From an uncultured archaeon (lineage in GTDB: Archaea > Asgardarchaeota > Thorarchaeia > Thorarchaeales > Thorarchaeaceae): DNA of 64,000 bases. Below are positions 6,159 through 62,975 of this stretch, one piece after another. The stretch's first letter is position 1, and each line of letters opens with the position of its first letter. The notes under the pieces are model-generated. The model saw nothing but the letters and a program-made list of their open reading frames with translations, was not told the DNA's origin and did no database searches. Both the position numbers and the translations under genes were made by a program. Location: the NCBI GenBank assembly GCA_964558645.1, contig CAZLEV010000013.1, positions 32,001 to 96,000 on the forward strand. The letters run 5' to 3'.

Positions 6159-6364
6159 GGGTAGGCCAACGTCTACATGAAACTTGAGCAGAGGTGGACA
6201 TGTACTAGACTATAGCCTGATCAAGGAGGGGCCTCAGGGAGGCGTCTAGGTGCTCTGTCCCAGAACTCGCATCCGAGCGCATCACAAGATCTCATGAAGC
6301 TCAACCCAGCCAGGCCCTTGAGAGGACGACACTCTTGTGTCAAGTCTGCTCAACTAGGACTGAA
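6159..6364 (-). repeat. Diverged copy of the ~190-210 bp structured dispersed repeat family
   Basis: First 42 nt align ungapped at 28/42 to the 38217 copy. Right part gacactcttgtgtcaagtctgctcaa matches caactctctggtgtccaagtctgccca. Internal inverted repeat TTGAGCAGA/TCTGCTCAA. Confidence 0.65.
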
Positions 6365-6510
6365 TGGAGAATCTATCGTCAATCTATGGCCTCCAGACGA
6401 GCAGCGAGAGCACTTCGTAATCGCTTTCTAATCCATGACCATGACACAAGTATTATATCGCTCGCTAGGCTCTCCCCCTCGACATAGCACCAAGTTGGAG
6501 ATTAGGCCCC

Positions 6511-9500
6511 ATGGTCAGTAAACCGGCAAAGAAGTCAAATTCGGAGAGTAGACCAACAGACGTGCTCATCATAGGTGCAGGTATGGGGGGCATCAGTGCG
6601 GCTCTCGACTTGGCAGCCGGAGGCCACCATGCCCATTTGATTGAGAGAACTGTCAACATAGGCGGAAACTACGTTGCGATTTACAAGATCTTTCCTGCAC
6701 TTGAATGCTCAGCCTGTGTTATGACGCCGTTAACCTCATTCGTGGGGCGGCACCCCAATATCACAATCCATGCGCTTTCCGAGATTGAAGATGTCAGGGG
6801 TGACGCAGGCAACTTCACAGTCACAATCAGGAAGAAAGCACGATATGTGAACGAAGACACGTGCACAGGTTGTCAGACCTGTATTCAGGCCTGTCCTGTT
6901 GAAGTGCCAAATGAGTATGACTTCGGGCAATCTCTGAGAAAAGCCATCTACATGAATTTCCCTCAACAGATTCCCCTAGTGGCAACAATTGACAGAGAAG
7001 CCTGTATCGGGTGTGGAACCTGCGCGGGTGTATGTCCTCAGGACTGTATCAATTATGATGATGAGGACCAGCTGTATGAACTCAATGTGGGATCCATTAT
7101 AGTCGCAACTGGATTCCAAGAGTACAAACCCCACGACTATAGTGAATATGGCTATGGTGTCTTCCCAAATGTGGTGACGTCCCTGGAGTACGACAGGCAG
7201 ACCCATCCAACTGGACCCACCGATGCCCATATGGTAAGACCCTCCGATGGACGAGAACCTGAGAGGATACTCTTTGTCAACTGTGTAGGAAGCCGCGATG
7301 TACGGGAGAACATAGAGGGATACAGTGATCACTGTAACAAAGTCTGCTGTTCATTTGGCCTCAAGCTTGCCCAGGTCACAAGGATGCACTACCCTGAGGA
7401 TCACTGCGAGATAATCTATACCTACATGGACCTTCGTACGGCAGGGAAGGCACTTGAAGAGTTCCTCTGGGACTCGCAACACAATCAGGGGATAGATTTC
7501 ATCCGGGGAAGAGTGGCCGAGATATCAGAAGACCCAGACACAAACGATCTCTTCGTCAAGATTGAAGATACCGATACAGGCGAGATTCAGGAACTGGAAG
7601 GAATCTCGATGGTGGTTCTCAACGGTAGTTTCAGACCTAATGATGGCCATGAGGAGTTAATGAAGAAGCTTGACATTGAGTTAGATGAAACCACTGGTTG
7701 GGTGAAGGAGAAACAGGCAAACTCTGCAGCACTAGAAACGAGCCGGCCGGGCATATTCATGGCTGGATGTATCCATGGACCCAAGGATGGCACAGATACG
7801 GTTAATGAAGGAAAAGGTGCTGCAATGGCGGCGCATTCTATTCTGCCCTTGCCTGAGCCAAAGCAGAAGGAAGAGATCGCCCCGATTGAAGTGGGCGACG
7901 AACCGCGTGTTGGGGTATTCATCTGTCACTGTGGTGGTATCATTGGGGACGTCATTGATTCTCCAGCTCTGGCGGAATGGGCGAAAGACCTTCCGAATGT
8001 TGCATACAGCACTGACTACATCTTCATGTGTAGCGACCCAGGGCAGGAACTTATCACCGAGGCCATCAAAGAACATAACTTGAACCGTGTAGTAGTTGGT
8101 TCCTGTTCACCCCTCCAACATGAGGGTACCTTTAGAGGGGCACTTGAGAGGGCAGGTCTGTCAGGTTATTACTTGGTTGGTCCTGTCGGGCTCCGCGAGC
8201 AACTCACACTGGTCAACAAGAATGCACCACCTGATGAGCGACAAGAAAAGGCTCAGGATATGATTCGAAGTGGTGTTGCCAAGGCGATAAACAATGAAGA
8301 GGTACCCCTGAAGTCAGTAGAAGTTGTAAGAACCGTCATGGTCGTCGGGGGAGGAGTCTCGGGGATGACTGCATCTCTGGATATAGCCAGAAAGGGTTTC
8401 AACGTGATACTTGTAGAGAAGACAGACCGATTAGGCGGACGACTGAACGAGCTTTACAGGATATTTCCAAACATGCAGTCCGCTCAGGAGATAGTGGACG
8501 ACCTTATCGAGAGGGTAGAGGAGGAAGATCTGATCACCGTGCTTCTCAACTCCAAAGTAGTAGATCGTGATGGGGCGTATGGAAGCTACGAGATCATGAT
8601 TGAGAATGTGGAAACTGGAGAGCGACACCCATACAACATAGGCACAATGGTGATTACGGTCGGAACGGATACATATGAACCCGAAGAGGGAGAGTATGGA
8701 TGGAGCAAGCTTGACAATGTCATAACCACGCTTGACCTTGAAAAGATGATGAAGAATGGCGAGCTGAAGAAACCACCAAAGAACCCGGTCTTCATCCATT
8801 GTGTTGGTTCAAGACAAAGTCCTGGAGAGGGCAATCGGTACTGCTCCCGCGTCTGCTGCTCTGCTGTAATAGCGATGCAAAGCGAGCTTAGCGAGATGTT
8901 TCCAGACATCAAGATCTTCTCCGCATACAAAGAACACATCCGTCCCTTCGCTAATGGTATGGAAGAGATGTGGAGAGAGAATCGGCAGAAGGGGGTCACC
9001 TACCTGCGATGGGTCAGAGAGAAGCCTGTGACTGTGGAGAAAGCCGAAGATTCAGACGACGCAATAGTCACCGTGTATGATACCCTTTCCCAGGAGACCT
9101 TCGAGATAAGATCGGACATGGTCATTCTTGCTGTAGGACTTGAGGCGCCACACGATGTGAACGAGCTTGTGAAAGCACTTGGAATCAACAGGAGCCAAGA
9201 CGGCTTCCTGGCGGAGATGCACATGAAGTTCAGGCCTGTAGAGACTACGGTTCCAGGAGTGTTCCTCGGTGTAACCTACGCAAAGAATGTCACTGACTCC
9301 ATCAATCAAGCACGAGGAGCGGCCAGCGAAGCCACTGCACCCCTGAATATGGGCACCGTAGAGATCGAACTATTGGTTGCAGAAGTGGACCAAGACCTCT
9401 GTGTCGGCTGTGACCTCTGCCATTATTCTGAGATTTGCCCATACGATGCTGTATCAATGGTTGAGGTGTCCCCGGGAGTGAAGAAGAGCGTCACCGATGA

Positions 9501-9618
9501 GATGCGATGCGAGGGGTGTGGTGCATGCTGTGCGATATGTCCAACTGGTGCAAGGGATCTGCGATGGTGGCGGGAGAACAGCTTCTTGGATCAGATAGAA
9601 GAAATGCTCCGGGAGTAG
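6511..9618 (+). CDS. hdrA: Heterodisulfide reductase subunit A-like flavoprotein, internally duplicated (two FAD modules)
   Basis: Two Rossmann motifs (IIGAGMGG; VVGGGVSG), FPALECSAC, ferredoxin insert, two CVGSR...CxxVCC motifs, central CHCG/CS/SCS domain, C-terminal 2x[4Fe-4S]. Confidence 0.9.
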   Translation: MVSKPAKKSNSESRPTDVLIIGAGMGGISAALDLAAGGHHAHLIERTVNIGGNYVAIYKIFPALECSACVMTPLTSFVGRHPNITIHALSEIEDVRGDAGNFTVTIRKKARYVNEDTCTGCQTCIQACPVEVPNEYDFGQSLRKAIYMNFPQQIPLVATIDREACIGCGTCAGVCPQDCINYDDEDQLYELNVGSIIVATGFQEYKPHDYSEYGYGVFPNVVTSLEYDRQTHPTGPTDAHMVRPSDGREPERILFVNCVGSRDVRENIEGYSDHCNKVCCSFGLKLAQVTRMHYPEDHCEIIYTYMDLRTAGKALEEFLWDSQHNQGIDFIRGRVAEISEDPDTNDLFVKIEDTDTGEIQELEGISMVVLNGSFRPNDGHEELMKKLDIELDETTGWVKEKQANSAALETSRPGIFMAGCIHGPKDGTDTVNEGKGAAMAAHSILPLPEPKQKEEIAPIEVGDEPRVGVFICHCGGIIGDVIDSPALAEWAKDLPNVAYSTDYIFMCSDPGQELITEAIKEHNLNRVVVGSCSPLQHEGTFRGALERAGLSGYYLVGPVGLREQLTLVNKNAPPDERQEKAQDMIRSGVAKAINNEEVPLKSVEVVRTVMVVGGGVSGMTASLDIARKGFNVILVEKTDRLGGRLNELYRIFPNMQSAQEIVDDLIERVEEEDLITVLLNSKVVDRDGAYGSYEIMIENVETGERHPYNIGTMVITVGTDTYEPEEGEYGWSKLDNVITTLDLEKMMKNGELKKPPKNPVFIHCVGSRQSPGEGNRYCSRVCCSAVIAMQSELSEMFPDIKIFSAYKEHIRPFANGMEEMWRENRQKGVTYLRWVREKPVTVEKAEDSDDAIVTVYDTLSQETFEIRSDMVILAVGLEAPHDVNELVKALGINRSQDGFLAEMHMKFRPVETTVPGVFLGVTYAKNVTDSINQARGAASEATAPLNMGTVEIELLVAEVDQDLCVGCDLCHYSEICPYDAVSMVEVSPGVKKSVTDEMRCEGCGACCAICPTGARDLRWWRENSFLDQIEEMLRE

Positions 9619-9625
9619 GATGTAG

Positions 9626-10195
9626 ATGGTTACACTCGACGGACTGTATTCAGCATGGATGGTCCTTAATGACTTGCTGGGCGACCTGCGAGAGAAAGGA
9701 GTTGCTATCCCCGATTTGACATATGCAGACTTCCGAAATAGCAAGATGCTCCTCGAGTACCTCCGATCGCTAGAAGAAGACCTTCGTGCCTCTGACAACG
9801 CGGATGAGAAGCTGAGAGTTGATATGGAGAGCAAAATACTCCGACTTCGTGAAATGCTGCTCTCTTGGGCCGAAGCCGAGATTGGCGTTGAGTATCGCAA
9901 GAAATGGGAAGAGGATATACGAAGGGGACTGAGAGAGGAAATTGATCTTCCGGAAACGGAAACTGCCGTGCCTATCAGCGATCTCCCCAGAGAGAAGGAA
10001 GTCAGTTTTTTCAGAATGAAGCTGCCAGAGGGGATTCCTGTTGAGGTAGTCTCCGAGATTGCTGAGCACTGCAACGTACTTATTTCTCTGGATGGTGAGC
10101 GCTACCTGCAAGTGAGCGGAAAGAAAGATTGTGTCAGGAGAGCAATGACACTACTTGGAGAAACGTTCTACGGGAAGAGCCAGATCAAGAACTAG
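9626..10195 (+). CDS. DUF2096-like protein
   Basis: N-terminal WMVLNDLLGDLREKGVAIP pattern resembles archaeal DUF2096; 7 nt downstream of hdrA. Confidence 0.7.
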   Translation: MVTLDGLYSAWMVLNDLLGDLREKGVAIPDLTYADFRNSKMLLEYLRSLEEDLRASDNADEKLRVDMESKILRLREMLLSWAEAEIGVEYRKKWEEDIRRGLREEIDLPETETAVPISDLPREKEVSFFRMKLPEGIPVEVVSEIAEHCNVLISLDGERYLQVSGKKDCVRRAMTLLGETFYGKSQIKN

Positions 10196-10243
10196 CGATC
10201 CGACTCGCATTGCTTAGATATCTCACTTCTCGCATAGTAGCCG

Positions 10244-11119
10244 CTATATTCCGAGCTTCTCTGCCACAGGATCTAGAGAGACACGGTTGAGTTCAAATCC
10301 AAGAGGTTCTGGGTCTAGTCCCATAGCAGCACCGAGAATCTGAGTGACAAAGAGCGCGGGGAGCTCAAGCGACTCACCTTTATCATCTTCCATGCCAAGG
10401 ACTTGCACATCAAACTGTGTGTGACAGGCAGGGCAGTTAGTAACAACACAGTCCGCACCAGCTTCTCTTGCAGACATCATCTTCTCCTTCAGTATGCTGG
10501 TGGCCACCTCTTCACTAGAAATGAGCAGGGGAGAACCGCAACATCTGAGTTTCAGGCCCCAAGGAACACTTCTCGCTCCTGTAATCTCAAGTAATTCGTC
10601 AACTTTGCGTGGTAGTTCTGGATCATCAAACGCAGCCACTTGCGATGGCCGTATCAGGTGGCATCCTGGATGAAATGCTATCTTCAGGCCATCAAGGGGG
10701 TGTACAATGCTGTTTCTTATTTGATCCCTGAGGTCGTAAAGAACATCTACGAAGTGTCTGATCTTCACATCGCCCGAGTACTTTAAACCTAGTTTCTCAA
10801 GTGCTACATTCACTTGTTGTGTCTGTTCTTCGTGATTGTGTAGAACATGGTCAACATCCCTGAGAGAGCCGAAGCATCCATTGCATGGAGTAACGATGTC
10901 ATGGCCACGACTCCCTGCAAGCGCAATGTTGCGTCCTGAGAGAGCCAACCAGCTTCGCTCATCAATAGACTTCAAAACCACAGTGCCGCAGCAAGAGGCC
11001 CCATCAAAGTCGAGCAACTCGATATCAAGGGCTTGAGCAACGGCTCTCATAGAACTCTCATAATTATTGAAACGATTAGGAATTGCACACCCCAAGAAAA
11101 CTTCATAGCTCTGGGTCAT
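10244..11119 (-). CDS. hdrB: Heterodisulfide reductase subunit B
   Basis: Two CCG domains: FLGC..CCG..TPCNGC; HPGCH..CCG..NCPACH. Confidence 0.92.
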   Translation of the reverse strand: MTQSYEVFLGCAIPNRFNNYESSMRAVAQALDIELLDFDGASCCGTVVLKSIDERSWLALSGRNIALAGSRGHDIVTPCNGCFGSLRDVDHVLHNHEEQTQQVNVALEKLGLKYSGDVKIRHFVDVLYDLRDQIRNSIVHPLDGLKIAFHPGCHLIRPSQVAAFDDPELPRKVDELLEITGARSVPWGLKLRCCGSPLLISSEEVATSILKEKMMSAREAGADCVVTNCPACHTQFDVQVLGMEDDKGESLELPALFVTQILGAAMGLDPEPLGFELNRVSLDPVAEKLGI

Positions 11120-11640
11120 TCTTCCTCATCCTCCTGCAGTTTCATGAGACCTGTTTCTTCGAAAATCTTCTGAGTGTCCTCAATATTCAGTGCAGGAACG
11201 TCTTCGAGTCCCAAATCTTCCCGTTCCCAATCTGTTGGTTCATAGAGCTTCCCAGTGTCATAGAGACCTTTTCGAGATACAACATACCCCTGAGGAGTAA
11301 TGCCCCTCTTGAATGCCATATTCTTGAGACCAAAAATGATGTCAGTGATGTCGATTCCCTGAGGACAACGCTCTTGGCATGTATAGCAGGTAGTGCAGAG
11401 CCAGACCATATCGGTCTCGAGGACTTCCTTCAGTCCAAATACGAGCATCCTCATGAGCTCATGGACTTGAACGTTAACTTTGTCGCTTACTGGACACCCA
11501 GCACTGCATTTTGCACATTGAAAGCAGGTGGTCAAATCTTGCCCTCCCAGTAGCTTCGCCGTTTCCTGAGTGAACTCTTTGTCTAGAGTAGAGAACTCCT
11601 TGCCTTCGAAACTCTTGAACTGACCCCATGTTTCTGTCAT
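11116..11640 (-). CDS. hdrC: Heterodisulfide reductase subunit C
   Basis: CFQCAKCSAGCP, WLCTTCYTCQERCP; overlaps hdrB start (ATGA). Confidence 0.92.
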   Translation of the reverse strand: MTETWGQFKSFEGKEFSTLDKEFTQETAKLLGGQDLTTCFQCAKCSAGCPVSDKVNVQVHELMRMLVFGLKEVLETDMVWLCTTCYTCQERCPQGIDITDIIFGLKNMAFKRGITPQGYVVSRKGLYDTGKLYEPTDWEREDLGLEDVPALNIEDTQKIFEETGLMKLQEDEEE

Positions 11641-12026
11641 GCATATCACTTCTTGGGTCTGCTGACACTCAGGTTTCGTTTCTTGCTCCGCTTATATCAA
11701 TAGCGTCGGAGGCAGATGCAGTTGGTGCATAGGGGACAGAAACCGCAAGCGGGCATTCTCTCGATGCTCCATTGCGTTGCTAACATTGAACTCGTACAGT
11801 TCTGATTCGTGATGATTCTCTTGGATTTGTACACTACAGTGATTCCGTGACTTATGCAAGTCAACGCGATACAATGGCGCCATGTAATCCTGGGGAAACT
11901 GTGTATAGGAATAGCATTTCTCAAGAAGATTGCTTTGATGCGACCTGTCACAAGATTTCAAACAGTTGAATGAGTGATCTGGAAACGAATCAGGGCAACA
12001 CGACTGCCAGAGAGGTGACACTGACA

Positions 12027-12089
12027 ATGGCAAAGGATAACAAGGCAAAGAAGACCACCGACGAGAAGAAGCAGAGGCCGAAGAAGTAA
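12027..12089 (+). CDS. Putative 20-aa Lys-rich micropeptide MAKDNKAKKTTDEKKQRPKK (copy 1)
   Basis: GAGGTGA SD 8 nt upstream of ATG; paralog 503 bp downstream with the same start, stop and frame. Confidence 0.65.
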   Translation: MAKDNKAKKTTDEKKQRPKK

Positions 12090-12137
12090 CGGCGGATGTG
12101 AAGTTCACACATCACTCAGAACAATATAGAGGAGGGA

Positions 12138-12155
12138 GGCCAGCACGAACTGGCC
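12138..12155. other. GGCCAG-N6-CTGGCC inverted repeat (terminator or protein-binding site), copy 1
   Basis: 6-bp stem starting 48 nt after the micropeptide stop, followed by AATCTCT; same spacing in copy 2. Confidence 0.45.
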
Positions 12156-12529
12156 AATCTCTCTATCTAGAACCCACCGTCCGGTTCAGAGATAGAATTC
12201 GATGACTGTTATCCACCCAGTAGGCTATTCTTGGTGACAGATTGGTTGGCATGGTATTACTCTGATTGAGTCAATATCAGAGCTGATTAGTGTGATTCTG
12301 AACCTACAAGAGAGGATTCTGCTGAAGACCGAGAGTACAATAAGATGCATGCTATAGCGAATTAATCGAGCATTATTGGGTGCGCAAATTGAGGGACGAC
12401 AGCGTATACGATTAGCAGTGTTTCTGTTACGTTGCCCCAAGCAGACTGTGTCCACAATCTCTTCAGGGCATTGTGGAACTGCAGCACGCTACCAGGAGCA
12501 ACATGACTGCCACAGAGGTGACACTAATA

Positions 12530-12592
12530 ATGGCAAAGGACAAGAAGGGAAAGAAGACCACCGACGAGAAGAAGAAGAAACCAAAGAAATAA
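12530..12592 (+). CDS. Putative 20-aa Lys-rich micropeptide MAKDKKGKKTTDEKKKKPKK (copy 2)
   Basis: GAGGTGA SD upstream; 16/20 aa identical to copy 1; synonymous changes GAT/GAC, CCG/CCA, AAG/AAA. Confidence 0.65.
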   Translation: MAKDKKGKKTTDEKKKKPKK

Positions 12593-12640
12593 CGACACCT
12601 CTGGTTTTTTCCATTGATCTACTAATACTTGGAGCATAAA

Positions 12641-12658: not shown

Positions 12659-12663
12659 AATCT

Positions 12664-15600
12664 CTATCTCTTTCTAAGCGGGCTCGGCCCGAGTTTCTCA
12701 ACGAGCTCGGAGAGTTCTTTGACCTTCTCCGCCCAAATGGGGCCTTCACTGGCACTTATCTGTGTGAATTGCAGACGCTCCGGTTCTAAGCCAGCCTTTT
12801 CAACTATTTTCTTGGCTATTGCATATCTTCTCTCAAAGGCCACATTGCCATCAACGTAGTGGCAGTCGCCGAAGTGACAACCCGATATCCAGACCATATC
12901 AGCTCCCTGTCGAAAAGCCTCCAGTATGTGGGTGACACTCACTCTCCCGGTACACATCACACGGATATCGCGGACCGTAGGTGGCTGCTGAAACCTTGAT
13001 ACACCGGCGCTATCGGCCCCGGCGTACGAACACCAGTTGCAGACTATTGTAAGGATTCGTGGTTGGTTCGCAGGCATGTCAGAGAGAGCTGCGCGGATTT
13101 GAGCCAGAATCTGGTCATCTGTGAAGTGTTTCATCGTGATGGCACCAGCGGGACAACCAGCAGCACACTTCCCACAACCCTGACAGAGTACAGGATTCGA
13201 CATGGCATAGTCATGACCCCCATCGCCCGGGATCACCTCAATAGCGTTGTACGAGCAGTTGATCTCGCAAGTACCACAGCCAACACAGACCTCGGGGTCA
13301 ACAACTGAAACAATCGCCTCAGCCTTCCTTATGCCACTAACAAGAGGTATGAGAGCACGAGCGGCCGCACCTCGACCCTGTGCGATTGCTTCATCAATCG
13401 GTTTGGGAGCAGTTGCAGTTCCGGCTACGTAGACACCATCAGTCTGGAAATCAACGGGCCTGAGCTTTGGATGTGCCTCCATGAAGAATCCCGACATGTT
13501 CGTGGGAATCTTGAAGATCTCGCCCAGATCCTTGTTTGTTTCACAAGGAACCATTGCGGTTGCCAGAATTGCATAATCAACGTCCAAGTTGAGTTTCGCG
13601 CCGAGAATCTGGTCCAACACCTCAACACGTACCGCAGTGGAATGACCCTTCTTCACTTCAGGAGGGCTATCCTTATCGAATCGGATGAAGACAACTCCCC
13701 TCTTTCGTGCATCCCGGTACTTGTCTTCAGCCGCATAGTGGACCCTTAGGTCACGATAGAGATGGAAGACTCGGGACTCAGGGCGTTTCTCCAAGAGCTC
13801 CAGTGTGTGTTCGAGAGCGACAGTACAACATATCCCTGAACACCAGGTTCGAGCGCCCTCAAGGGACTCATCCTCACGGGAACCAGCACAATGAATCACA
13901 GCATAGGTCCCATCGACAGGAAGACCATCCTCATTGATTCTACGGTTGAATTCTTCCTCAGTAATGACCTCGGGAATCTTCTTGAATCCATAGAGACCCT
14001 CTTCCTCCAATGATTGTGCGCCTGTTGCAACGATTACAACCCCCACTTTGAGGTCCGTCTTCTTCTTGCCGGTCTTGATGACCACCTCGAAGTCACCAAT
14101 AGAACCCTTAGCGTCGACAACTTCTGATTCGAGCATCAAATCGATGTTTTCGATGTTAGATATCTCATTTCGAAGCTCCTCAACAACATCGGAGGTCGAC
14201 CTGAAATCGAAGTTAACAGTTGCAAGACTGTTCAGATATCCACCGACTCTATCCTTCTTCTCAATGAGATAGACCTTGAAGCCCTTCTCGGCAATTGCCT
14301 TCGCAGCAGACATCCCCGCCACACCAGCACCGATGACAAGAGCACTCGGTTCGATATCGGTGACGGCCTCTTCCTGCGGCTCCAGTAGCCTAGACTTAGC
14401 CACAGCCATTCTGACAAGATCCATCGCCTTTGAAGTCGCCTCATCCTTTGCGCCCTGATGAATCCACGAGCAATGTTCTCGAATATTGGCCATTTCAAAG
14501 AGGTACTTGTTTAGTCCTGCTTCCTCGATGGTTGAGCGAAACAGCGGCTCATGCGTACGGGGTGTGCAAGATGCAACAACGACACGGTTGAGATTGTGTT
14601 CTTTGATGGCATCCTTGATCACCACTTGAGCGTCAGAGGAACAAGAATAGAGCAGGTTCTCGGTATAGACAACTCCCGGAAGACTATCTGCATAGTTCCT
14701 CACTTCATCAACATCAACCGTTCCCGCAATATTGATACCACAAGAGCAAACGAAGACACCAACACGAGGGTCAGCCGTCATCATGTCGAGATCGGCCTCT
14801 GTCAGCTCCTCGGTCTCACGTCGCTCTGGAAGGCCGGTGTCCTGTATCGCTAATGCCGCAGCGGCGCTACCTTGAGCCACAGAATCAGGGATATCTTTTG
14901 GTTGATTAACGGAGCCACACATGTATATCCCTGGAACCGTCGTCATCACGCTCTCGATGTGGCCATCGGGGCCATGCACAAAGCCGTATTGATCCACATC
15001 TATTCCCAGAGTCTCATACAGTTCTGCATTCTCGTTTGGTACCATAGCTGGACAGAGAACCACTAGGTCATAGTGGTCATCCAGAACTTCATGCCCCTTC
15101 GCATCGCTATGTCGTACAATCAGTCCTCGGGTCTTCGGGTCCTCGATGATCTCACTGGGAAGACCCTTCACGTAGTTGATTCCGTACTCATTCTCGCCCC
15201 GTACAAGAAACTCCTCAAATCCCTTGCCGAAGGCACGCATATCATTATAGAGGAGATCGATATGTACCTCTGGCGTGTGCTCTTTGGTGATTATTGCCTC
15301 TTTCGTAGCATAGGTACAACATATCTTTGAACAATAGGCACAATGATTCACATCGCGACTGCCCACACACTGGATAAAGGCAATCCTGTGGGGTTCAAGT
15401 CCATCCGAGGGGCGCATGACAACACCTTCGGTCGGACCACTGGCTGAAACCATTCTCTCGTATTCAAGAGCAGTCACAACGTTGGGGTATCGACCGTAAC
15501 CATACTCTTTGACCTCTGATGGATCAAGAAGATGATAGCCAGTTGCAAGGATGATTGCCCCTGCGTTGATTTCGATGGTTTCGTCCGGGATGGAGAAATC

Positions 15601-16104
15601 GATTGCTTCAGCCCTGCAGCTGTTGACACACGTCATGCACTGAATACAGTTCTCGATATCTATGGTCGCAACATTGGGTACTGCCTGTGGGAACGGAATG
15701 TACGACGCCTTGCGCATCTTCAGGCCCATGTCGTATTCATTTGGAACTTCAATGGGACAGACACGCTGGCAGTCACCACACCCAGTACACTTCTCCGGGT
15801 CAACTCGGCGGGTATGCTTCAATACGTTCACTGTGAAGTCACCCTGAACACCGGCGACTTCAATCACCTCAGAATAGGACAATATCTCGATGTTGGGATG
15901 ACGGCTTGCATCAACCATCCATGGTCCCATGATACACATGGAACAGTCCAACGTTGGAAAGGTCTTGTCTAGTTGAGCCATATGGCCTCCTATGGACGGT
16001 TCACGCTCCACCAAGAATACTTTGACACCCATATCTGCAAGGTCTAGGGATGCGCGGATGCCTGCGATTCCTGCACCGATGATTACGATTGGCTTTCCTG
16101 CCAT
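12664..16104 (-). CDS. hdrA: Duplicated HdrA fused to C-terminal MvhD ([2Fe-2S]) domain
   Basis: LDKTFPTLDCSMC, two FAD motifs, CSCG/CS/SCTPRTHEPLF, NIREHCSW; C-terminal CNWCSYAGAD...RVMCTGR...GCHFGDCHY...ISASEG (MvhD). ATG 16104 follows GGAGTGA. Confidence 0.93.
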   Translation of the reverse strand: MAGKPIVIIGAGIAGIRASLDLADMGVKVFLVEREPSIGGHMAQLDKTFPTLDCSMCIMGPWMVDASRHPNIEILSYSEVIEVAGVQGDFTVNVLKHTRRVDPEKCTGCGDCQRVCPIEVPNEYDMGLKMRKASYIPFPQAVPNVATIDIENCIQCMTCVNSCRAEAIDFSIPDETIEINAGAIILATGYHLLDPSEVKEYGYGRYPNVVTALEYERMVSASGPTEGVVMRPSDGLEPHRIAFIQCVGSRDVNHCAYCSKICCTYATKEAIITKEHTPEVHIDLLYNDMRAFGKGFEEFLVRGENEYGINYVKGLPSEIIEDPKTRGLIVRHSDAKGHEVLDDHYDLVVLCPAMVPNENAELYETLGIDVDQYGFVHGPDGHIESVMTTVPGIYMCGSVNQPKDIPDSVAQGSAAAALAIQDTGLPERRETEELTEADLDMMTADPRVGVFVCSCGINIAGTVDVDEVRNYADSLPGVVYTENLLYSCSSDAQVVIKDAIKEHNLNRVVVASCTPRTHEPLFRSTIEEAGLNKYLFEMANIREHCSWIHQGAKDEATSKAMDLVRMAVAKSRLLEPQEEAVTDIEPSALVIGAGVAGMSAAKAIAEKGFKVYLIEKKDRVGGYLNSLATVNFDFRSTSDVVEELRNEISNIENIDLMLESEVVDAKGSIGDFEVVIKTGKKKTDLKVGVVIVATGAQSLEEEGLYGFKKIPEVITEEEFNRRINEDGLPVDGTYAVIHCAGSREDESLEGARTWCSGICCTVALEHTLELLEKRPESRVFHLYRDLRVHYAAEDKYRDARKRGVVFIRFDKDSPPEVKKGHSTAVRVEVLDQILGAKLNLDVDYAILATAMVPCETNKDLGEIFKIPTNMSGFFMEAHPKLRPVDFQTDGVYVAGTATAPKPIDEAIAQGRGAAARALIPLVSGIRKAEAIVSVVDPEVCVGCGTCEINCSYNAIEVIPGDGGHDYAMSNPVLCQGCGKCAAGCPAGAITMKHFTDDQILAQIRAALSDMPANQPRILTIVCNWCSYAGADSAGVSRFQQPPTVRDIRVMCTGRVSVTHILEAFRQGADMVWISGCHFGDCHYVDGNVAFERRYAIAKKIVEKAGLEPERLQFTQISASEGPIWAEKVKELSELVEKLGPSPLRKR

Positions 16105-16516
16105 TACCGTGTTCACTCCGTTGGCGTCATCGCGTTGGTCTGAAACCGATGATAAAAGCTTAGTTGTGTGACGTTAACGAGCCGGCAACGTACTACGAGC
16201 CGATTGGCGCGAAATGCATCCTTGATGTCTCACCAGTGTCCATTCACCGATGAGCATTAATATTACGGGGGCAATACATGGATGGGACGCAGATGAAGGC
16301 TACAAGATTGTACACCCGTGCATATATTTCTAGAAATCACTCATATTCTAAGAACGATGTTGATACATACGAAGAGCTGGCCAACATGGAGATCGTGGTC
16401 CCTCCACCCAAGCAACCCACGTGAGAGTACAGTTCTTCTATCTTCTATCTGGTTGCATCGAGCGTCTGAGCACTGCCAAGTGTTCGTTTGAACTGCACTT
16501 GGTTGTACATTAGATT

Positions 16517-33368: not shown

Positions 33369-33555
33369 GGGTATATCAACAGCTACCGAAAACGTAGACA
33401 GAGTTGTACATTTCCGCGTAAGAGTCAGTGTCCTCCAGCCATTGACTGAGAACTGGTCACTCACGCGGCATCGCTGACCACGACGAAGACCACCCAATGC
33501 CGTTACCTAGGGGGACAAATCTCTGGTGTCCAAGCTTGTCCAATATACAATGAGC
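33369..33555 (-). ncRNA. Putative structured ncRNA / non-autonomous element, copy A (187 nt)
   Basis: Ungapped 146/187 identity (hand count) to 38217-38403, with compensatory changes in several stems; lies between convergent genes. Confidence 0.6.
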
Positions 33556-33662
33556 AATTGATCCTGGCACTTTTTCGAGGGCATCTTGATAGGAAGCAAG
33601 GCCTCACAGAGTTGATTACAGCGCTACTTCCCGAAGAATGGAACCCCAGTGGCCAGATTTGT

Positions 33663-38216: not shown

Positions 38217-38403
38217 GGGTATACTAACAGCTACCGAAAACGTGGACAAATCTGGACAGTTCAGCGCAGGAGTCTATACCCTCCAGTCCATGACTGAGAG
38301 CTAGTCACTCACACACTATCGCTGACCACGACAGAAACCACCCAGTGCTGTTACCCGGAGGTACAACTCTCTGGTGTCCAAGTCTGCCCAGCATACAGTG
38401 AAC
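38217..38403 (-). ncRNA. Putative structured ncRNA / non-autonomous element, copy B (187 nt)
   Basis: Homologous to 33369-33555; nested stems plus pseudoknot-compatible pairing; CTTAAG TATA-like box just upstream on the minus strand. Confidence 0.6.
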
Positions 38404-38595
38404 GGTCCAATCTTAAGCATACTATACCTGGGAATGGAGAAGACAAGAGGTGGGAGCCAGCAAGGCATCAATACATTGGGTGTGGTATACTTACCGTGAT
38501 TCCCTGCAAGCAACCCACCGCCCTATTGTATGATAGAACTTCTACTAAAGCGTTTTCACAGGAGAGTTGAACGAAAAACGCCATATGGAGACTGG

Positions 38596-56139: not shown

Positions 56140-56179
56140 TGGGATCTCTCCATTTTCTCGTTGATACACTTGGGACCAA

Positions 56180-56445: not shown

Positions 56446-56856
56446 CTACTTGAAATCGCCTAGTCGATTCTCACCGGTTATCTCCTGAAGAGGAGTGAGA
56501 TTCAGAGTTGCTTCCAGAGTGCCAAGATACTTTCCATCGTTATCTCGAATCGCAAAATACCTGATGAGGAGCTTCCGCGGTTCTCCTTCCGCCGGTAAGT
56601 CGATCCAGAAATCGACATGGTCCTTCTCTCCCGAACGGAGAGACTCAATCACCTCCAGGACCTTGTCCAGCGACTTTTTGGGATGACAATTACGTACATC
56701 CTTCCCAAGTACCCCATATCCACGACGGAAGATGCGGGTTTCGTGCTGATTCCAGAATCGCACCTTATCGTCAGCATCGATGACTGAGAACTCCATCGGG
56801 AAGGCGTCAAGCATTGCCGCCAAGAACTCATCATCCATCTTCTTAAGAGCGTCCAA
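56446..56856 (-). CDS. Stand-alone PAS domain protein (PAS_10-like)
   Basis: LDAFPMEFSVIDADD.VRFWN, GKDVRNCHP, GKYLGTLE. Confidence 0.83.
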   Translation of the reverse strand: MDALKKMDDEFLAAMLDAFPMEFSVIDADDKVRFWNQHETRIFRRGYGVLGKDVRNCHPKKSLDKVLEVIESLRSGEKDHVDFWIDLPAEGEPRKLLIRYFAIRDNDGKYLGTLEATLNLTPLQEITGENRLGDFK

Positions 56857-57139
56857 GAGAGGATCGTTGTCGTTCAGTTACGTTCACCAAGACTGCTGCT
56901 GACTGTATTGCGTCATAAGTGTTGTGCGATGAATGGAAAGGTAAGTGCAGGAGCGTCCGATGCGGGATATCCGCAACATCTTGCCTATCGGAGGAGATGT
57001 GTCATTTTCTCAAGACACCTTACGAAACTCAGATACTGGCCAATGAAGCAGTAGGATTATTAAGCGAGTTGTTCACCCTATCCAACCGCTGGTTGACGAT
57101 ACCATGCAGCCCACACGCACGCCACCAGACGGAGGAACC

Positions 57140-57808
57140 TTGGTGGTCGAAGTAACGCTGCTCTGCAAATCTCGAGAGGGTAGTGCAGAGGAGATTCGCC
57201 TTTCTGATGACATACGCGAATTGAATCTCTCGTATCGGAGGATATCCGAGATAGACCTTCGCCCTCTGGCCAAATGTCAGAATCTTGAAATTCTTGACCT
57301 GTCAGACAATCTCATCAGCGAGATAAATCTCTGGCCTTTGATGAAATGCAAGCAGCTGAAACAACTAAGACTGTGCCGTAATAGATTCAAACGAATCGAT
57401 GTCACACCGCTTTTGGACATTCCGCAGTTAAGAACCATTGATATAGATGATACAGTCGAGATTGTAGCGAACTACGACATGCGCACGAGGAGGATAAAGG
57501 GGATATCTCTCGAGGAGCTCCGAAGCAAGCATCCATTGAGATGGCGATTCGACTCGGAGACAATGGATCCATTGATTGAAGTGGAGAGAGTTCGAAACAA
57601 GCTCTTCACCGAGCTGAATGAAATCTACTGTAGCCCCGATAATCGCCAAGTTATCCATGCAGAGATGATGTGCAGACTGCAATCGGCCTTAGAAGACGCC
57701 CTTGTCCATGAGATTGCCAACGCGGAAAGAGCTGAAAACTACAAGAAACTGTATGTTCTCCAGAGAGGCCTAGAATACATAAAGCATAACACCCCAGCTG
57801 CCATATAG
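57140..57808 (+). CDS. Leucine-rich repeat protein
   Basis: LNLSYRRISEIDLRPL / LDLSDNLISEINLWPL / LRLCRNRFKRIDVTPL repeats; start after GGAGG. Confidence 0.82.
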   Translation: MVVEVTLLCKSREGSAEEIRLSDDIRELNLSYRRISEIDLRPLAKCQNLEILDLSDNLISEINLWPLMKCKQLKQLRLCRNRFKRIDVTPLLDIPQLRTIDIDDTVEIVANYDMRTRRIKGISLEELRSKHPLRWRFDSETMDPLIEVERVRNKLFTELNEIYCSPDNRQVIHAEMMCRLQSALEDALVHEIANAERAENYKKLYVLQRGLEYIKHNTPAAI

Positions 57809-57857
57809 GTATCTTGGCTAAGCAAGAGATGGATTGTTGTCCATCTGACTTCGATCT

Positions 57858-58397
57858 ATGCTGAATGGTGAAGGCACGTCTGGAGGACACGTTGGTTTGG
57901 ACCAGATTATTCTACGCTACAAGACCACGACCGGACTGGAGAAGATGACCCGTATAAGAACAGATGAGTCACACATCAACTTGGAAGTACGGGACATCCA
58001 GACCATCGACTTGCTACCTCTAATCTGGTGCGGAAATCTGGAGGGATTAAGCCTCAGCTATAACGCACTCGAAGAAATAGACCTTTCACCACTCAATCGA
58101 TGTCCTAATCTGCAGGGACTCTGGCTAAGTCATAATAGGCTGAAGGTTGTCGATTTCTCCCCACTTGCTAAGTGCTCTCAGCTCGAGGAGGTCTGCCTTC
58201 AGAACAATGATATCAAGAGACTGGATGTTTCCGGGCTCTTCAATTGTCGCAATCTCCAAGTTCTAAGGTTGGATGAAGATGTGACCCTGACCGCTGATGT
58301 CTTTCTCAAGTCGATCGGAAACTGGCCAGACCTGCTTGTGAAGTACTACGACAAGATACTCTGGCGCTCAAATGTGGATTGGGGAAGACTGAAGTAA
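57858..58397 (+). CDS. Leucine-rich repeat protein (paralog)
   Basis: LSLSYNALEEIDLSPL / LWLSHNRLKVVDFSPL / LQNNDIKRLDVSGL repeats. Confidence 0.85.
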   Translation: MLNGEGTSGGHVGLDQIILRYKTTTGLEKMTRIRTDESHINLEVRDIQTIDLLPLIWCGNLEGLSLSYNALEEIDLSPLNRCPNLQGLWLSHNRLKVVDFSPLAKCSQLEEVCLQNNDIKRLDVSGLFNCRNLQVLRLDEDVTLTADVFLKSIGNWPDLLVKYYDKILWRSNVDWGRLK

Positions 58398-58412
58398 TTC
58401 GGCATGCTAGGA

Positions 58413-59411
58413 CTACTCGACAGCTCCCAGCTCACTCATATTACCAACAACTTCAAGGCCAGCATTCATTCCCGTCCCCTCGAAGAGCAGTTCGTTCTGT
58501 CCGTCAGTTGTTTCATAGAGTTTCAGATGAATCTCGGCAGTTAGACTCTCAACAATTCGACCGTCCATCAGACCACTCTCAGGAGAGCGCAGTGTCGCTC
58601 CTCCAGAACGAGATGCATTCACCAAGAGATTATGCTTGCGGTCAGACACCTTGAACTGGACTTCCCTGGGTGTGATCTGAATGTCAGAGACCTTGGCTCT
58701 CGTATATGTCGTGAATCGGTAGACCTTGCCTTCAAAGAGTAATCCGATGAGGAATCCTGCAAAGGACCTTCTAATCCAAGGGATTGTTGCTATCGAAGAT
58801 GTGAAAGAGATGCCGGTCTCCTCAAAATGGTTTGACTGCATCCATATCCAAGCACTTGGAAATCCAGCTCCCCAGTCTTTCTCGATGTAGCCGCGGCCAC
58901 CAGAGAAATCGATGCTCTGTCCATCAACCTCAATGGAACCATCCAGTGCATGATCGAAACTGAGAATCCCGTGAAGACACTCCATTCCGGGGATGAATCG
59001 GAATGGGCCCATGGCCCCGGGACTGAGTCGTGACACCGGCCATGGAACTGGTTCTCCGAATCTCACATGACCTCTCACTGTGTCCGCTTCATCGGCTATA
59101 TCCAGAGAGATTCCTTGGAGGCTGAAGACATTCTTGTCAATCCAGATCTTGAAGCTGTCATCAGAGGTCTGGAAATCATCGAGCTGGAAATCATGATAGG
59201 TAGAACGAGCGTTGGGGCCTCTCATGACTTGAATGAATGAGTGTGAGTCCTGAGCGCTATCACCAAAGGAAACGCCCGGGATGATAGCAAGAGAGTCATC
59301 GCGGGCCTCATTGACCATCTTGAAGTACCAGCCCTCGAAGTAGTTCCTCATCTTCGCCCGTCCTTGGTACATCTCGGGTCTCCAAATCGCTCGTAACCGC
59401 CTCGGAATCAT
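58413..59411 (-). CDS. Tocopherol cyclase family protein
   Basis: YFEGWYFK, MGPF, GYIEKDWG..FP..WIW.QSN. Confidence 0.85.
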   Translation of the reverse strand: MIPRRLRAIWRPEMYQGRAKMRNYFEGWYFKMVNEARDDSLAIIPGVSFGDSAQDSHSFIQVMRGPNARSTYHDFQLDDFQTSDDSFKIWIDKNVFSLQGISLDIADEADTVRGHVRFGEPVPWPVSRLSPGAMGPFRFIPGMECLHGILSFDHALDGSIEVDGQSIDFSGGRGYIEKDWGAGFPSAWIWMQSNHFEETGISFTSSIATIPWIRRSFAGFLIGLLFEGKVYRFTTYTRAKVSDIQITPREVQFKVSDRKHNLLVNASRSGGATLRSPESGLMDGRIVESLTAEIHLKLYETTDGQNELLFEGTGMNAGLEVVGNMSELGAVE

Positions 59412-59515
59412 TGAGTTTCAACTACAAGTCTGATAATGATAAGTACCTGTTATTTGTGTCCATCGAGTCGCATAAATCATATTCTCATAGTCCACTATGA
59501 CTGATGTGATACAGA

Positions 59516-60316
59516 ATGGATACAAAGCTTAACGGAAGACATGTGCTGATTAGTGGAGCCTCTGGCGGTATCGGCCATACGACCGCCGAACTCTTTCTGC
59601 AGGAGGGCTGTATGGTAACTGCATGCTATCACACCAAGCCCAGAAACCTAAGTAGACTGAGTACTCAGTATCCTGACACGCTCCTGCTCGCACAAGTCGA
59701 TGTCACAGAAGAACAGCAGGTGGAGAAGCTCTTTGAACAGTCGAAGGCCGAGTTTGGCAGGGTAGACATACTGGTCGCAAATGCGGGAATTGCCAATAAT
59801 CACGGGCGTGGAATCCACGAGATGCCTGTGGAACAGTGGAACAGGACCTTGGCGGTCAACCTCACCGGCGTGTTTCTCTGTGCAAAGCACTTCTTCAAGA
59901 ATCTCGATGAACACCGAGGGGATACGGCAGCACTCGTAATGATAGGTTCTACCGCAGGGATCTTCGGAGAGGCGTGGTACTGCGACTATGCCGCATCAAA
60001 GGCCGCAATGCACGGTCTGATGATGAGTCTGAAGAATGAGATCGTTCACCTTACTCCACGGGGAAGAGTGAATATCGTGAGTCCTGGCTGGACGATGACG
60101 CCCATGGCCAAGGGCGCACTTCAGGATAAGGACATGCTGAAGACAATACTCCAGACCGTTCCCCTTCGTAAGACAGCCGTGACAGGCGACATCGCCAGTG
60201 CAATCGTCTTTCTCGCATCAGATCGACTTGCAGGGCACATCAGTGGACAGACCGTCACAGTGGCAGGCGGAATGGAGGGCAGGGTGTTATTCACACGGGA
60301 TGATTTTGACATGTGA
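59516..60316 (+). CDS. SDR family oxidoreductase
   Basis: GASGGIG, NAG, YAASK. Confidence 0.9.
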   Translation: MDTKLNGRHVLISGASGGIGHTTAELFLQEGCMVTACYHTKPRNLSRLSTQYPDTLLLAQVDVTEEQQVEKLFEQSKAEFGRVDILVANAGIANNHGRGIHEMPVEQWNRTLAVNLTGVFLCAKHFFKNLDEHRGDTAALVMIGSTAGIFGEAWYCDYAASKAAMHGLMMSLKNEIVHLTPRGRVNIVSPGWTMTPMAKGALQDKDMLKTILQTVPLRKTAVTGDIASAIVFLASDRLAGHISGQTVTVAGGMEGRVLFTRDDFDM

Positions 60317-60351
60317 CCCCAGAGCCAAGCGTTTATATCTTAATGATACAT

Positions 60352-60370
60352 ATATGTAATAGCTACATAT
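60352..60370. promoter_or_regulatory. ATATGTA-N5-TACATAT palindrome downstream of TATA (TTTATAT 60332), candidate PadR operator
   Basis: Perfect 7-bp inverted repeat over the likely TSS of the operon containing padR. Confidence 0.45.
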
Positions 60371-60390
60371 TGGATATGGAGGCATATGGA

Positions 60391-60882
60391 ATGGCAAATC
60401 TATTGGTTCTGGGAATTGTGAAATTCCTTCACGATCTCTTTACAACAATATGGGTCGGCGGATTAATCACACTGGGAATCAGCGTCATGCCATCGGTCAA
60501 GAAATCAATGGGAATGGGGCCGGAGGCAAACAAGTTGATGGACACCATCAGGAAGAAACTCAGCATATTGGTCTATGTCAGCATAATTGGCCTGTTCGTA
60601 ACTGGGCTGTTGATGGGAAATAGCTCGCCCCTCTATTCAGGCGTTCTGTCCATCAGTAACGAGTATTCGGCCCTGCTAACGGCGAAGCATCTCGTCGTTG
60701 CATTGATGGTAGTCCTGGCCCTTGTCAGAAGTCGAGTTCTTCCGAGAATGTCGCTAGAGGACATGAAGAAGACAAAGATGGGTGCAAGACTAACAATCCT
60801 AAACATGATCCTCGGAATCGTAGTACTGCTACTGAGTGCATTCGCCTCTGCGATGACCATCGTCGCACTTTCTTCAGGCTAA
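60391..60882 (+). CDS. CopD/DUF4149-like 4-TM membrane protein
   Basis: FLHDL...IWVGG, TG, KH motifs; ATG 60391 after GGAGG. Confidence 0.7.
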   Translation: MANLLVLGIVKFLHDLFTTIWVGGLITLGISVMPSVKKSMGMGPEANKLMDTIRKKLSILVYVSIIGLFVTGLLMGNSSPLYSGVLSISNEYSALLTAKHLVVALMVVLALVRSRVLPRMSLEDMKKTKMGARLTILNMILGIVVLLLSAFASAMTIVALSSG

Positions 60883-60927
60883 AAAGCGGATACTATCCTC
60901 CGACGGTCTAGAGTAGGTTATGAAATC

Positions 60928-61323
60928 GTGACAAAACACAGCGGGCAACATAAAGATCACCCTTCAGGCGAACAAGAGTATAGTCCACTTGAACCACTTC
61001 CGATTGTCAGGATAATGCTTCTATTGCTGGTACGCGATGAACCCGGATCAACGGGGTATGATCTGATAGGACTGATAGAAGAACTAACCCATGGTCATGC
61101 GATGATCCAGTCAGGCACCGTCTATGGGGAGCTGCGTAGACTGGAGAAGCATGGGATGCTCACTTCTCAGAGAGAGAAGGATGGCAGGCGGAGAAGGGAA
61201 TATCAGATAACGGAGCAGGGTGAACAGGAGCTTGCAATGCTGATGGCTCAGGTGAGGATGCGAACTAGGACTGTTCTAAAGCCCTTACTCTCTCGATACT
61301 ACGAAGAGGACACTAGCGAATAA
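60928..61323 (+). CDS. PadR family transcriptional regulator
   Basis: GYDL, GTVY..LRRLE..G, RREYQITEQG. Confidence 0.88.
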   Translation: MTKHSGQHKDHPSGEQEYSPLEPLPIVRIMLLLLVRDEPGSTGYDLIGLIEELTHGHAMIQSGTVYGELRRLEKHGMLTSQREKDGRRRREYQITEQGEQELAMLMAQVRMRTRTVLKPLLSRYYEEDTSE

Positions 61324-61335
61324 TAGGAGGCATCA

Positions 61336-62106
61336 TTGTTGAGAGCTATGGGTTTTGATGAAGTTGCACTTGCCTATGACTCTTCAATAGACTGGGAAGC
61401 ACGCCTTTCTAGAGAGATTCCATTTATGATTGAATCAACTGGGAGCATCGACCAGAAACGCGTACTTGATCTGGCCTGTGGTACGGGGAGGCATGCAATT
61501 GTTTTGAGTAAGCTAGGTGCAACTGTCGTGGGTATCGATAGTAGCGAAACGATGATTAATCAGGCAAGAAAGCTAGCTGCAGAGGAGCATGCTGATGTTA
61601 AATTCTTGATTGCAGACATGAAAGAGATGCACGTGTTACTTCGAAACAAGTTCGATCTTGTCATATGTCTGGGTAACTCCTTGGCGCTTCTCAGTAATCT
61701 AGACTCATTGAAAGAGGTGATATCAGACATAAGAGACATACTCGTTCCGGGCGGCAGATTCATCGCACAGATTCTCAACTTCGAAGAAATCCTCAATTCA
61801 CGGTTCCGCTATATGCCTCCGAAGTCCGGGCGAACCGTAGACGGAAACGAGATTGTCTTCTTCCGCTTCTTCTCTCATGCTGATGAATCAGAGGTTTCTA
61901 CACTCATACTCAGTGCATTCGAGAGAAGAGGAGCTGAATGGGAAGTAACGATGCGCTCCATGGATGTATTGCAACTCAATCACGACATTATTGGGAGTAT
62001 GATGACTGCTGCTGGGTTCACGCGTTTCAGATACTATTCGTCCTATGAGGGGGTGCCTTTCAATAGCAGGAGAGACAGAAACCTCATTGCTGTCGCTATC
62101 AAGTAA
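61336..62106 (+). CDS. Class I SAM-dependent methyltransferase
   Basis: VLDLACGTG, GID.S, FDLVICLGNS, LVPGG. Confidence 0.88.
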   Translation: MLRAMGFDEVALAYDSSIDWEARLSREIPFMIESTGSIDQKRVLDLACGTGRHAIVLSKLGATVVGIDSSETMINQARKLAAEEHADVKFLIADMKEMHVLLRNKFDLVICLGNSLALLSNLDSLKEVISDIRDILVPGGRFIAQILNFEEILNSRFRYMPPKSGRTVDGNEIVFFRFFSHADESEVSTLILSAFERRGAEWEVTMRSMDVLQLNHDIIGSMMTAAGFTRFRYYSSYEGVPFNSRRDRNLIAVAIK

Positions 62107-62147
62107 CATGAGAAACAGTCGCCGGTTTTCGGCGCCCATTTATGTTT

Positions 62148-62711
62148 CTATGGCCAGACATCTTCCTGTTCAGGCTCTGTGATTTCCTCTGTTTCTTCTT
62201 TCTCCCACCACATCTGCTCATTATCGCTTTCAATCCATGTTGGTGTGGCAGGTGGTGGCCAAGTCCTCAGAACCAGGTATCCAAGTAGAAGCACAATCGG
62301 CACGGGAATGAATGCAAAATTGGTACCGCAGGGATAGAAAAGCACCATTATTATGGTCGGAGCCATCATGAAGAGAAACGGCAGCAATTCGGATAGAATG
62401 CCAACTCGGATTGTTGTCTTTCTTGTCTTTTCAACAGAGTAGCATTTGTGCACGAAATAGATGAAAATGACCTTCAGCCCATAGAGTGGGAAGTTACTCA
62501 ACAGCATGATTGGGTTGATGTAAAAGTAACTGTAGCTTCCAAGCGCCAAAATCCATGTTGGTGCGTAGATAGACAGTGTGGAACCGCCGATGTATACTGT
62601 GAAGACGATAAACATCGGACTAAGCAGCATCACAACAAGTAGGATGGCGGCCATGGTCTGTTGGCTGACAGGCAGGTCATGTCGATATGCAGAGTTGTCG
62701 ACGGATTGCAA
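62148..62711 (-). CDS. Hypothetical membrane protein
   Basis: 4-5 TM helices, acidic W-rich tail. Confidence 0.7.
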   Translation of the reverse strand: MQSVDNSAYRHDLPVSQQTMAAILLVVMLLSPMFIVFTVYIGGSTLSIYAPTWILALGSYSYFYINPIMLLSNFPLYGLKVIFIYFVHKCYSVEKTRKTTIRVGILSELLPFLFMMAPTIIMVLFYPCGTNFAFIPVPIVLLLGYLVLRTWPPPATPTWIESDNEQMWWEKEETEEITEPEQEDVWP

Positions 62712-62766
62712 TCCATATCCTCCTATGGAACCAAATGCATGTGTTACCTTTACTAGTTTTCTCTAT

Positions 62767-62975
62767 CCGATTGCATACATCTTTGTGAAACTTGGGCATT
62801 CCTAGACATCAATCAGACGACAGTCCTAGACAACTGATAGAACAGTATATCGCTAAGCACGATTATCTGAGGATGCTGGTGACCCGACACAGTACAGACC
62901 TCGCAGAGCTGCCCCATTACCGTTACATCGATGTACGAAACTCTGGTGTCCAGGATCATACAACTTACAATGAAC
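62767..62975 (-). repeat. Diverged copy of the ~190-210 bp structured dispersed repeat family
   Basis: Last 63 nt align ungapped to copies A and B (ccgttac...ctctggtgtcca...acaatgaac). Left part tgaaacttgggca...tagaca matches the 6159 copy. Confidence 0.7.

Follow-up and report, generated by a model that had tools for sequence, protein, structure and literature searches.

RESULTS

The stretch of DNA analyzed here (the window) comprises 64,000 nucleotides of contig CAZLEV010000013.1 from an Asgard archaeon of the family Thorarchaeaceae (assembly GCA_964558645.1), and it carries four intergenic copies of a dispersed repeat of roughly 190 or 210 bp, which a first-pass annotation had described as an unannotated family of structured noncoding elements. 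The four segments are present where that annotation had placed them and can be aligned with one another; their refined limits are given in Table 1. The repeats are very probably non-autonomous mini-elements of IS607 type, comparable to miniature inverted-repeat transposable elements (MITEs) or palindrome-associated transposable elements (PATEs) and derived from a transposon of Thorarchaeota. Taken as a whole, the evidence makes it likely that these mini-elements serve as stand-alone guide-RNA cassettes for TnpB in trans.

An iterated nhmmer model gave 56 matches in the 3.63-Mb genome, made up of about 30 full-length copies and about 25 fragments, and the additional copies that the first-pass annotation had suggested searching for were thereby found. 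The window copies had E values of 1e-26 to 1e-48, which are partly circular given that these copies seeded the model; many copies besides the window four had E values below 1e-30. When 30 full-length copies were aligned, they shared sharp common ends (GGGT on the left and ATGAACGGT on the right), and their flanks were unrelated. The four window copies had been noted as lying in one orientation, which is chance, given that both strands are occupied genome-wide and that the next copy, 2 kb beyond the window, is reversed. Identity to the nearest neighbor ranges from 57% to 99% among copies, suggesting activity that is both long-running and recent. By BLAST, 11 of the 24 genomes from this family contained relatives, as against 0 of 16 from outside it, and mini-elements were gathered from seven genera of the family (n = 74 copies). 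Class-named genomes with a linked TnpB were all Ca. Thorarchaeota, one record being named only Promethearchaeota, and a search of viral contigs for an exact right-end match found none. As the annotation had surmised, the repeats belong to no family recognized by Rfam scans, which gave no match at gathering or E-value thresholds (one scan returned snoRNA matches at chance level only); RAGATH-18 (RF03064) had no match in the window or in eight copies, and its genome-wide scan was silent, as were its control genomes.

Insertion sites.

Each window site is without the element in at least one sister species, where the orthologues are too diverged for base precision. Empty sites in close relatives, a check that had been proposed, were resolved at 11 better-conserved orthologous positions (G000 versus G001), and these fit the form X-G[GG]T-Y, with a single shared GG and no duplication; the fit is exact at 2 of the 11, and the rest show one or two junction changes. 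Across the flanks of 75 copies, the left junction reads (A>T>C)GGG|T and the right one AAC-GG-T, GGG|T being present in 67 to 69 of the 75. At the level of sequence, these junctions establish (A>T)GGG|T as the insertion target, with a single GG core shared and the target not duplicated. IS607 is characterized by a GG core, a (G)GG target preference, and the absence of target duplication (PMC6188088), and the single core, lack of duplication, and (G)GG flanks seen here thus match its published signature.

The parent transposon.

Both end blocks are those of a coding transposon. Right-block-only matches in the same genome lie directly 3' of TnpB zinc-ribbon matches, and the right block overlaps the final codons of an ~720-amino-acid (aa) tnpB in this genome and in ~45 Thorarchaeota loci. 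The left block lies directly upstream of an IS607 tnpA (NF033518/Resolvase) at 13 loci in 12 genomes, and the TnpA proteins linked to it combine MerR/helix-turn-helix (HTH) and resolvase parts, that is, they are N-terminal-HTH serine recombinases. Complete parents of 8.0 to 8.6 kb are organized as left end (LE), tnpA, a giant open reading frame (ORF) on the opposite strand, the 720-aa tnpB, and right end (RE). Compared with these parents, a mini-element joins their left end to their right end through a module of fixed length. Internally deleted intermediates were found (L055 and L056, 560 to 730 bp, and C5:222111-227013), and L055 and L056 show how ends-only elements can arise. The 720-aa TnpB scores below NCBIfam cutoffs, retains RuvC residues D492/E603/D696 and four Zn cysteines, and is represented in the genome by several full-length ORFs. 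A Y1 TnpA (PF01797) was sought in this metagenome-assembled genome (92.8% complete), and none was found.

Several related elements were also observed. L014:612-5514 (G000 C5:222111-227013) is a 4.9-kb element with both ends and broken tnpA and tnpB, and its cargo consists of two intact ORFs, one for a 795-aa, weakly metzincin-like protein and one for a 233-aa Thr-linker membrane protein. In G001, L076:617-1343 is a deletion derivative of 726 bp in which tnpA-N and tnpB-C are fused in frame into an ORF of 207 aa; the corresponding empty site of G000 retains GGGT at the junction. At L015 (G000 C5:237102-237872), a mini-element is split by an ~570-bp relic of a 561-aa TnpB family (see below), its uninterrupted relative being L117.

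The end arms each hold two GGACA motifs spaced 10 bp apart, in inverted relative orientation between the ends, and the outer termini differ. The first-pass annotation had proposed that the arms are complementary and that pairing rather than sequence is conserved; we found the complementarity, whereas the terminal arms of 68 copies carry 25 compensated versus 310 one-sided changes (shuffle mean, 16 compensated), which does not support the second part. Given that the changes are mostly one-sided, we read the arms as protein-binding repeats, and the end-to-end stem is predicted to consist mostly of inverted transposase-binding repeats; the role of phased subterminal repeats as TnpA-binding sites is taken from IS607 work (PMC6188088). 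An end-to-end terminal stem as a conserved RNA fold was rejected on the basis of this low compensation, the covarying structure being in the last ~105 nt.

The internal box and the RNA scaffold.

The middles of the elements, originally described as variable, are not freely so, given that a TATA-like box occurs in them at a set position, together with helices that covary. This box, preceded by a purine-rich word, lies 131 to 137 nt from the right end in 56 of 74 copies (shuffle mean, 5.5; maximum, 13). Lengths of the mini-elements cluster at about 180, 190, 200, 212, and 222 bp (n = 74), in steps of about one helical turn, and the differences always arise in the interval from left end to box, never in that from box to right end, so that box spacing is constant across 180 to 222 bp. 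Archaeal transcription starts ~30 nt downstream of the TATA box, and a start at this distance would fall on the first base of hairpin P1. Because a mini-element has no tnpB mRNA from which a guide could be processed, it would need a promoter of its own.

The box is followed by an ~105-nt covarying, pseudoknotted scaffold, the 3' half of which matches the guide scaffold of the parent TnpB. In the parents, a hairpin loop, CCGTT[C/G], pairs with the terminal [G/C]AACGG, a pairing that matches the nexus pseudoknot of TnpB RNAs, and the named helices are 96.8% paired, the loop-to-3'-end pseudoknot included (C-G/G-C/U-A exchanges). The mini-elements retain the same core, to which they join P1, P2, and what is probably a second pseudoknot, GACAC/GTGTC (variants, GACAT/ATGTC and GACAG/CTGTC); pairing in their named helices reaches 92.9%, and 39 cells show double changes (0/500 shuffles; slid controls, 26 to 54%). 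P2 is 94% paired and shows double changes in four of its six pairs; one position has five pair types and another has four. By unbiased mutual information, the four top-ranked pairs of the mini-elements include 87:113 and 56:97, the other two lying in the nexus loop (register shifts); in the parents, the measure picked out helix H, the stem of the nexus, and the pairing of the loop with the 3' end. The consensus fold from the four window sequences was weak. In 0.8 Mb of parent loci, the noncoding 5' module (P1, P2, and the second pseudoknot) turned up only within a mini-element, and a tree built from the last 66 nt of the copies gave weak signal on single versus multiple origin.

L188:17691-17886 is a mini-element of 196 bp that lacks the P1/P2 module and has a right end like that of the parent; it probably represents an independent origin and a natural control.

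The right flanks, from which guides would be read, are ordinary host DNA and are continuous in sister species at the compared sites, and an acquired-spacer origin of the guides was rejected on this basis. Predicted guides searched against their own genome had no GGG-adjacent near-perfect second target, and self-targeting or regulatory guides were rejected for that reason.

The giant gene and a second TnpB family.

The giant gene (1,500 to 1,900 aa) is multicopy and is present in 17 of the 26 genomes sampled from the family versus 1 of 124 others. The first 900 residues of its product were modeled with a predicted local distance difference test score of 84, and residues 10 to 270 match the Cas1 catalytic domain with Z scores of 11 to 13, near the structure-comparison tool's caution level for helical domains (casposase, 11.2; root mean square deviation, 3.6 to 4.2 Å; 168 to 197 residues aligned). 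E80/H201/D208/D211 are conserved. Residues 604 to 900 have a RecA/KaiC fold in which the Walker A lysine is not conserved, and a PD-(D/E)xK and a QxxxY motif lie between the two parts, assigned by motif alone. The protein had no sequence match in Pfam, NCBIfam, or PDB, and Atlas scores were <0.9. On the strength of the modeled Cas1-like fold, the giant gene is the Asgard Cas1 (aCas1) of the aCas1-TnpB loci described in PMC10691335, where aCas1 is proposed as a transposase replacing Y1 or serine enzymes. In the complete parents, tnpA, aCas1, and tnpB all lie within one pair of IS607-type ends with serine-type junctions, which argues against Cas1 as the parent's transposase. A separate TnpB family (561 aa), which has other ends and terminates in GTTCACTCA, likewise has the giant gene beside it, suggesting that the link of this gene is to TnpB and not to the IS607-type ends.

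The 561-aa family was observed at L012:747-7262 (G000 C2) and also at C10, C26, and C28; the giant gene is divergent to the 561-aa tnpB at C2 and C10, a tRNA-like sequence follows the copies at C2 and C26, and short 3'-end relics are scattered in the genome. At L011:5504-7700 and L143, an aCas1-tnpB pair with an eroded right end lies beside a tRNA-like gene in both G000 and G001, and this pair is possibly a fixed, domesticated copy.

The window copies and their neighbors.

Table 1. Mini-element copies in the window, parts of copy 3, and complete parent transposons
Feature	Position	Strand	Details
Copy 1, 210-bp class	6159..6367	+	Strongly decayed; box and nexus loop lost
Copy 2, 190-bp class	33369..33557	+	TATA box and right GG core decayed; element absent at site in G001 and G002
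Copy 3, 190-bp class	38217..38405	+	Best-preserved mini-element; G-GG core 38217-38219, right GG core 38404-38405; order: left end, promoter-like box, scaffold, right end
Copy 3, left end (LE)	38217..38258	+	Two GGACA motifs 10 bp apart (38242, 38252); predicted TnpA-binding repeats
Copy 3, purine-rich word resembling a B recognition element, and TATA-like box	38266..38280	+	TCTATACC at 38273; predicted archaeal promoter, start near 38301
Copy 3, mini-element-specific 5' scaffold module	38301..38337	+	Hairpin P1 and left arm of P2
Copy 3, hairpin P1	38301-38307/38323-38329	+	Loop with ACAC
Copy 3, P2	38332-38337/38368-38373	+	The two segments pair
Copy 3, right end (RE) and shared scaffold core	38341..38405	+	Two inverted GGACA-type motifs
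Copy 3, nexus-like hairpin	38341-38358	+	Loop pairs with terminal AACGG 38401-38405
Copy 3, helix H	38361-38364/38386-38389	+
Copy 3, predicted guide	38406..38425	+	Host flank read through from right end; inferred from IS607 TnpB precedent (10.1101/2023.11.20.567912)
Copy 4, 210-bp class	62768..62977	+	Outer left end decayed; box 62845, P1 loop GACAC 62886, nexus loop CCGTT 62920
Complete parent	L173:89-8053		tnpA, giant aCas1/PD-(D/E)xK/RecA-fold fusion, 720-aa TnpB
Complete parent	L170:2158-10178		Same three genes
Complete parent	L190:3595-12179		Same three genes

Among the window copies, only copy 3 retains both GG cores and the box. Copy 1 lies between divergent iron-sulfur and HdrA-like genes, and its site has no element in G002 and other decayed copies in G001. 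The site of copy 3 is empty in G002, and copy 4 is absent in G002 and common to G001, where its left junction is intact (GGGT). The segment 35961-38445, which holds a metallophosphoesterase gene and copy 3, is missing from the orthologous G001 region. Positions 6511-9618 and 12664-16116 each encode an HdrA-like flavoprotein, one of which carries a fused MvhD/FlpD domain; such proteins are ordinary for Asgard archaea.

DISCUSSION

The first-pass annotation had offered a non-autonomous mobile element or guide-RNA scaffold mobilized in trans, and this was correct in kind; the IS200/IS605 type that it named was not, given that the serine recombinase and GG core are those of IS607. By IS607 precedent, TnpA made in trans would bind the phased GGACA repeats and excise or insert the element as a circle. 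The internal promoter would give an RNA composed of the ~105-nt scaffold and ~20 nt of the right flank, TnpB from a full element would load this RNA and cut the empty allele (GGG motif and flank), and homologous repair after the cut would restore the mini-element copy. TnpB cutting with repair-driven retention has been shown for IS605 and IS607 systems (PMC10055086; 10.1101/2023.11.20.567912), and an IS607 TnpB guide RNA works in trans (10.1101/2023.11.20.567912). We think it probable that intact mini-element copies give a working TnpB guide.

In common with IS607, IS1535, ISC1926, and CboIStron (PMC6188088, 10.1101/2023.11.20.567912), the elements described here share their ends with an N-terminal-HTH serine-recombinase TnpA, use a GG core without target-site duplication, and have helically phased subterminal repeats and termini that are not inverted repeats. 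They likewise have a TnpB gene overlapping the right end, a scaffold ending in GG with a nexus pseudoknot, and a predicted G-rich target-adjacent motif (TAM), as in the TGGG, GAGGG, and AGGAG TAMs of IS607 TnpBs (10.1101/2023.11.20.567912; PMC11061315). What sets them apart is the gene-less, ~190-bp derivatives with an internal promoter-like box and the ~8-kb parent with its ~720-aa TnpB and 1,500- to 1,900-aa aCas1 fusion. As in the omegaRNAs (reRNAs) of TnpB, a right-end stem-loop is pseudoknotted to the scaffold 3' end, and a cognate TnpB with an intact RuvC triad is present in the genome. RAGATH-18-derived reRNAs are also IS607-linked, with pseudoknots and G-rich TAMs (AGGAG, GAGGG) (PMC11061315), which likens them to the RNA proposed here; however, they adjoin ~390-aa bacterial TnpBs, and their Rfam model gave no match in the window or in eight copies.

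Guide-bearing mini-elements are not new as a concept, given that the IS200/IS605 PATEs of G. stearothermophilus encode an omegaRNA used in trans (PMC10055086). Like those PATEs, the mini-elements are gene-less, consist of ends only, keep a guide scaffold, and would depend on TnpA and TnpB in trans. The PATEs differ in having a Y1 HUH TnpA and hairpin ends, whereas the ends here belong to serine-recombinase elements, and the scaffold here exceeds the tnpB 3' end, with a separate 5' module and its own box. The parent resembles the aCas1-TnpB loci (Cas1H-Asgard groups) of PMC10691335, which cites Makarova 2020 for them, in that, by the model, a Cas1-like gene adjoins tnpB; the GTTCACTCA motif downstream of tnpB in those loci follows the 561-aa family here and not the 720-aa tnpB, and, unlike in that account, the serine recombinase is not replaced in the 720-aa TnpB group. 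The section of that account covered here makes no mention of mini-elements. Within the literature covered, which is incomplete, we found no description of the three-gene parent or of IS607 mini-elements equipped with a promoter and a scaffold module of their own.

Several observations weigh against the view that the mini-elements are TnpB guide cassettes. Many copies are decayed, three of the four window copies included, and only broken pieces of tnpA were assembled when an intact gene was sought in the 92.8% complete genome. The covariation and TATA counts treat copies without correction for kinship, and P1, the loop pairing, and the second pseudoknot were counted from motif-chosen anchors. 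Being near-invariant in mini-elements, the terminal pseudoknot yields no covariation signal among them; the folding energy is ordinary (mean z of about -0.3), and RNAalifold recovers just four pairs of P2. For the source of the 5' module in the parents, only weak AT-rich matches at the tnpB promoter were found (E of 0.4 to 0.6). Finally, erosion of the GGG motif at the empty sites (7 of 11, with ~4.5 expected from flank identity) says little either way.

Some of these points would suit plain DNA parasites, namely, TnpA-mobilized IS607 MITEs in which the fold and box are remnants or an end-synapsis spacer and which TnpB does not use. We regard this as rather unlikely. The ~10-bp length steps are what a constraint of DNA geometry would give, there is no folding-energy signal, the right-end core may be kept for TnpA binding, and the L188 mini-element does without the module; however, the steps are confined to the interval between left end and box, P2 joins a mini-element-only segment to the right end with its five and four pair types at two positions, and the module persists over seven genera. 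The RNA could instead bind TnpB as a decoy or regulator, titrating TnpB or repressing neighbors rather than retaining its own copy, which would fit the ~30 cassettes against a handful of tnpB genes, a scaffold unlike the parent's, and copies near gene starts and ends. This seems improbable to us, given that the guides lack near-perfect, GGG-adjacent targets at other places in the genome, the catalytic residues of TnpB are intact, and the guide is simply the insertion flank.

The giant aCas1 might, as a casposase-like enzyme, move the mini-elements in place of the serine recombinase. In its favor are the Cas1-like fold with its conserved residues, the presence of intact giant genes in a genome where intact tnpA was not found, and the published proposal of a transposase role noted above. 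Casposon-like Cas1 transposition produces a target-site duplication on insertion, and none was seen here; the single GG core without duplication is a serine-recombinase signature, tnpA lies inside the same ends in complete parents, and the giant gene is also seen with a second TnpB family whose ends differ, all of which make this explanation very unlikely. To an independent multicopy noncoding RNA or ribozyme family unrelated to transposition, the other reading offered by the first-pass annotation, we give almost no credence: the copies are structured, intergenic, and without an Rfam match, but both of their ends are those of a coding transposon that was itself found, and their insertions are polymorphic between sister species, with empty sites.

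In summary, IS607-type mini-elements would explain an abundant, unannotated repeat of Thorarchaeota. The elements offer handles on an Asgard RNA-guided system, namely, exact ends, a predicted TAM of (A/T)GGG, a compact scaffold of ~105 nt separated from coding sequence, and a 720-aa TnpB. The findings also bear on the open proposal of Asgard Cas1 as a transposase, given that in the 720-aa TnpB group the Cas1 fusion would need another role. We can speculate, at long odds, that the mini-elements are a long-lived lineage of self-promoted guide genes, each with a 5' RNA module dedicated to that use, serving a serine transposase, a Cas1/Cas4-like/RecA-fold fusion, and a large TnpB, with the aCas1 fusion acting at TnpB-cut sites (end processing, homing, or reinsertion) or helping to place new cassettes. 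If this were true, the three-part system would be a natural intermediate between transposon homing and a CRISPR-like separation of guide genes and effector, in which Cas1 is already coupled to an ancestor of Cas12.

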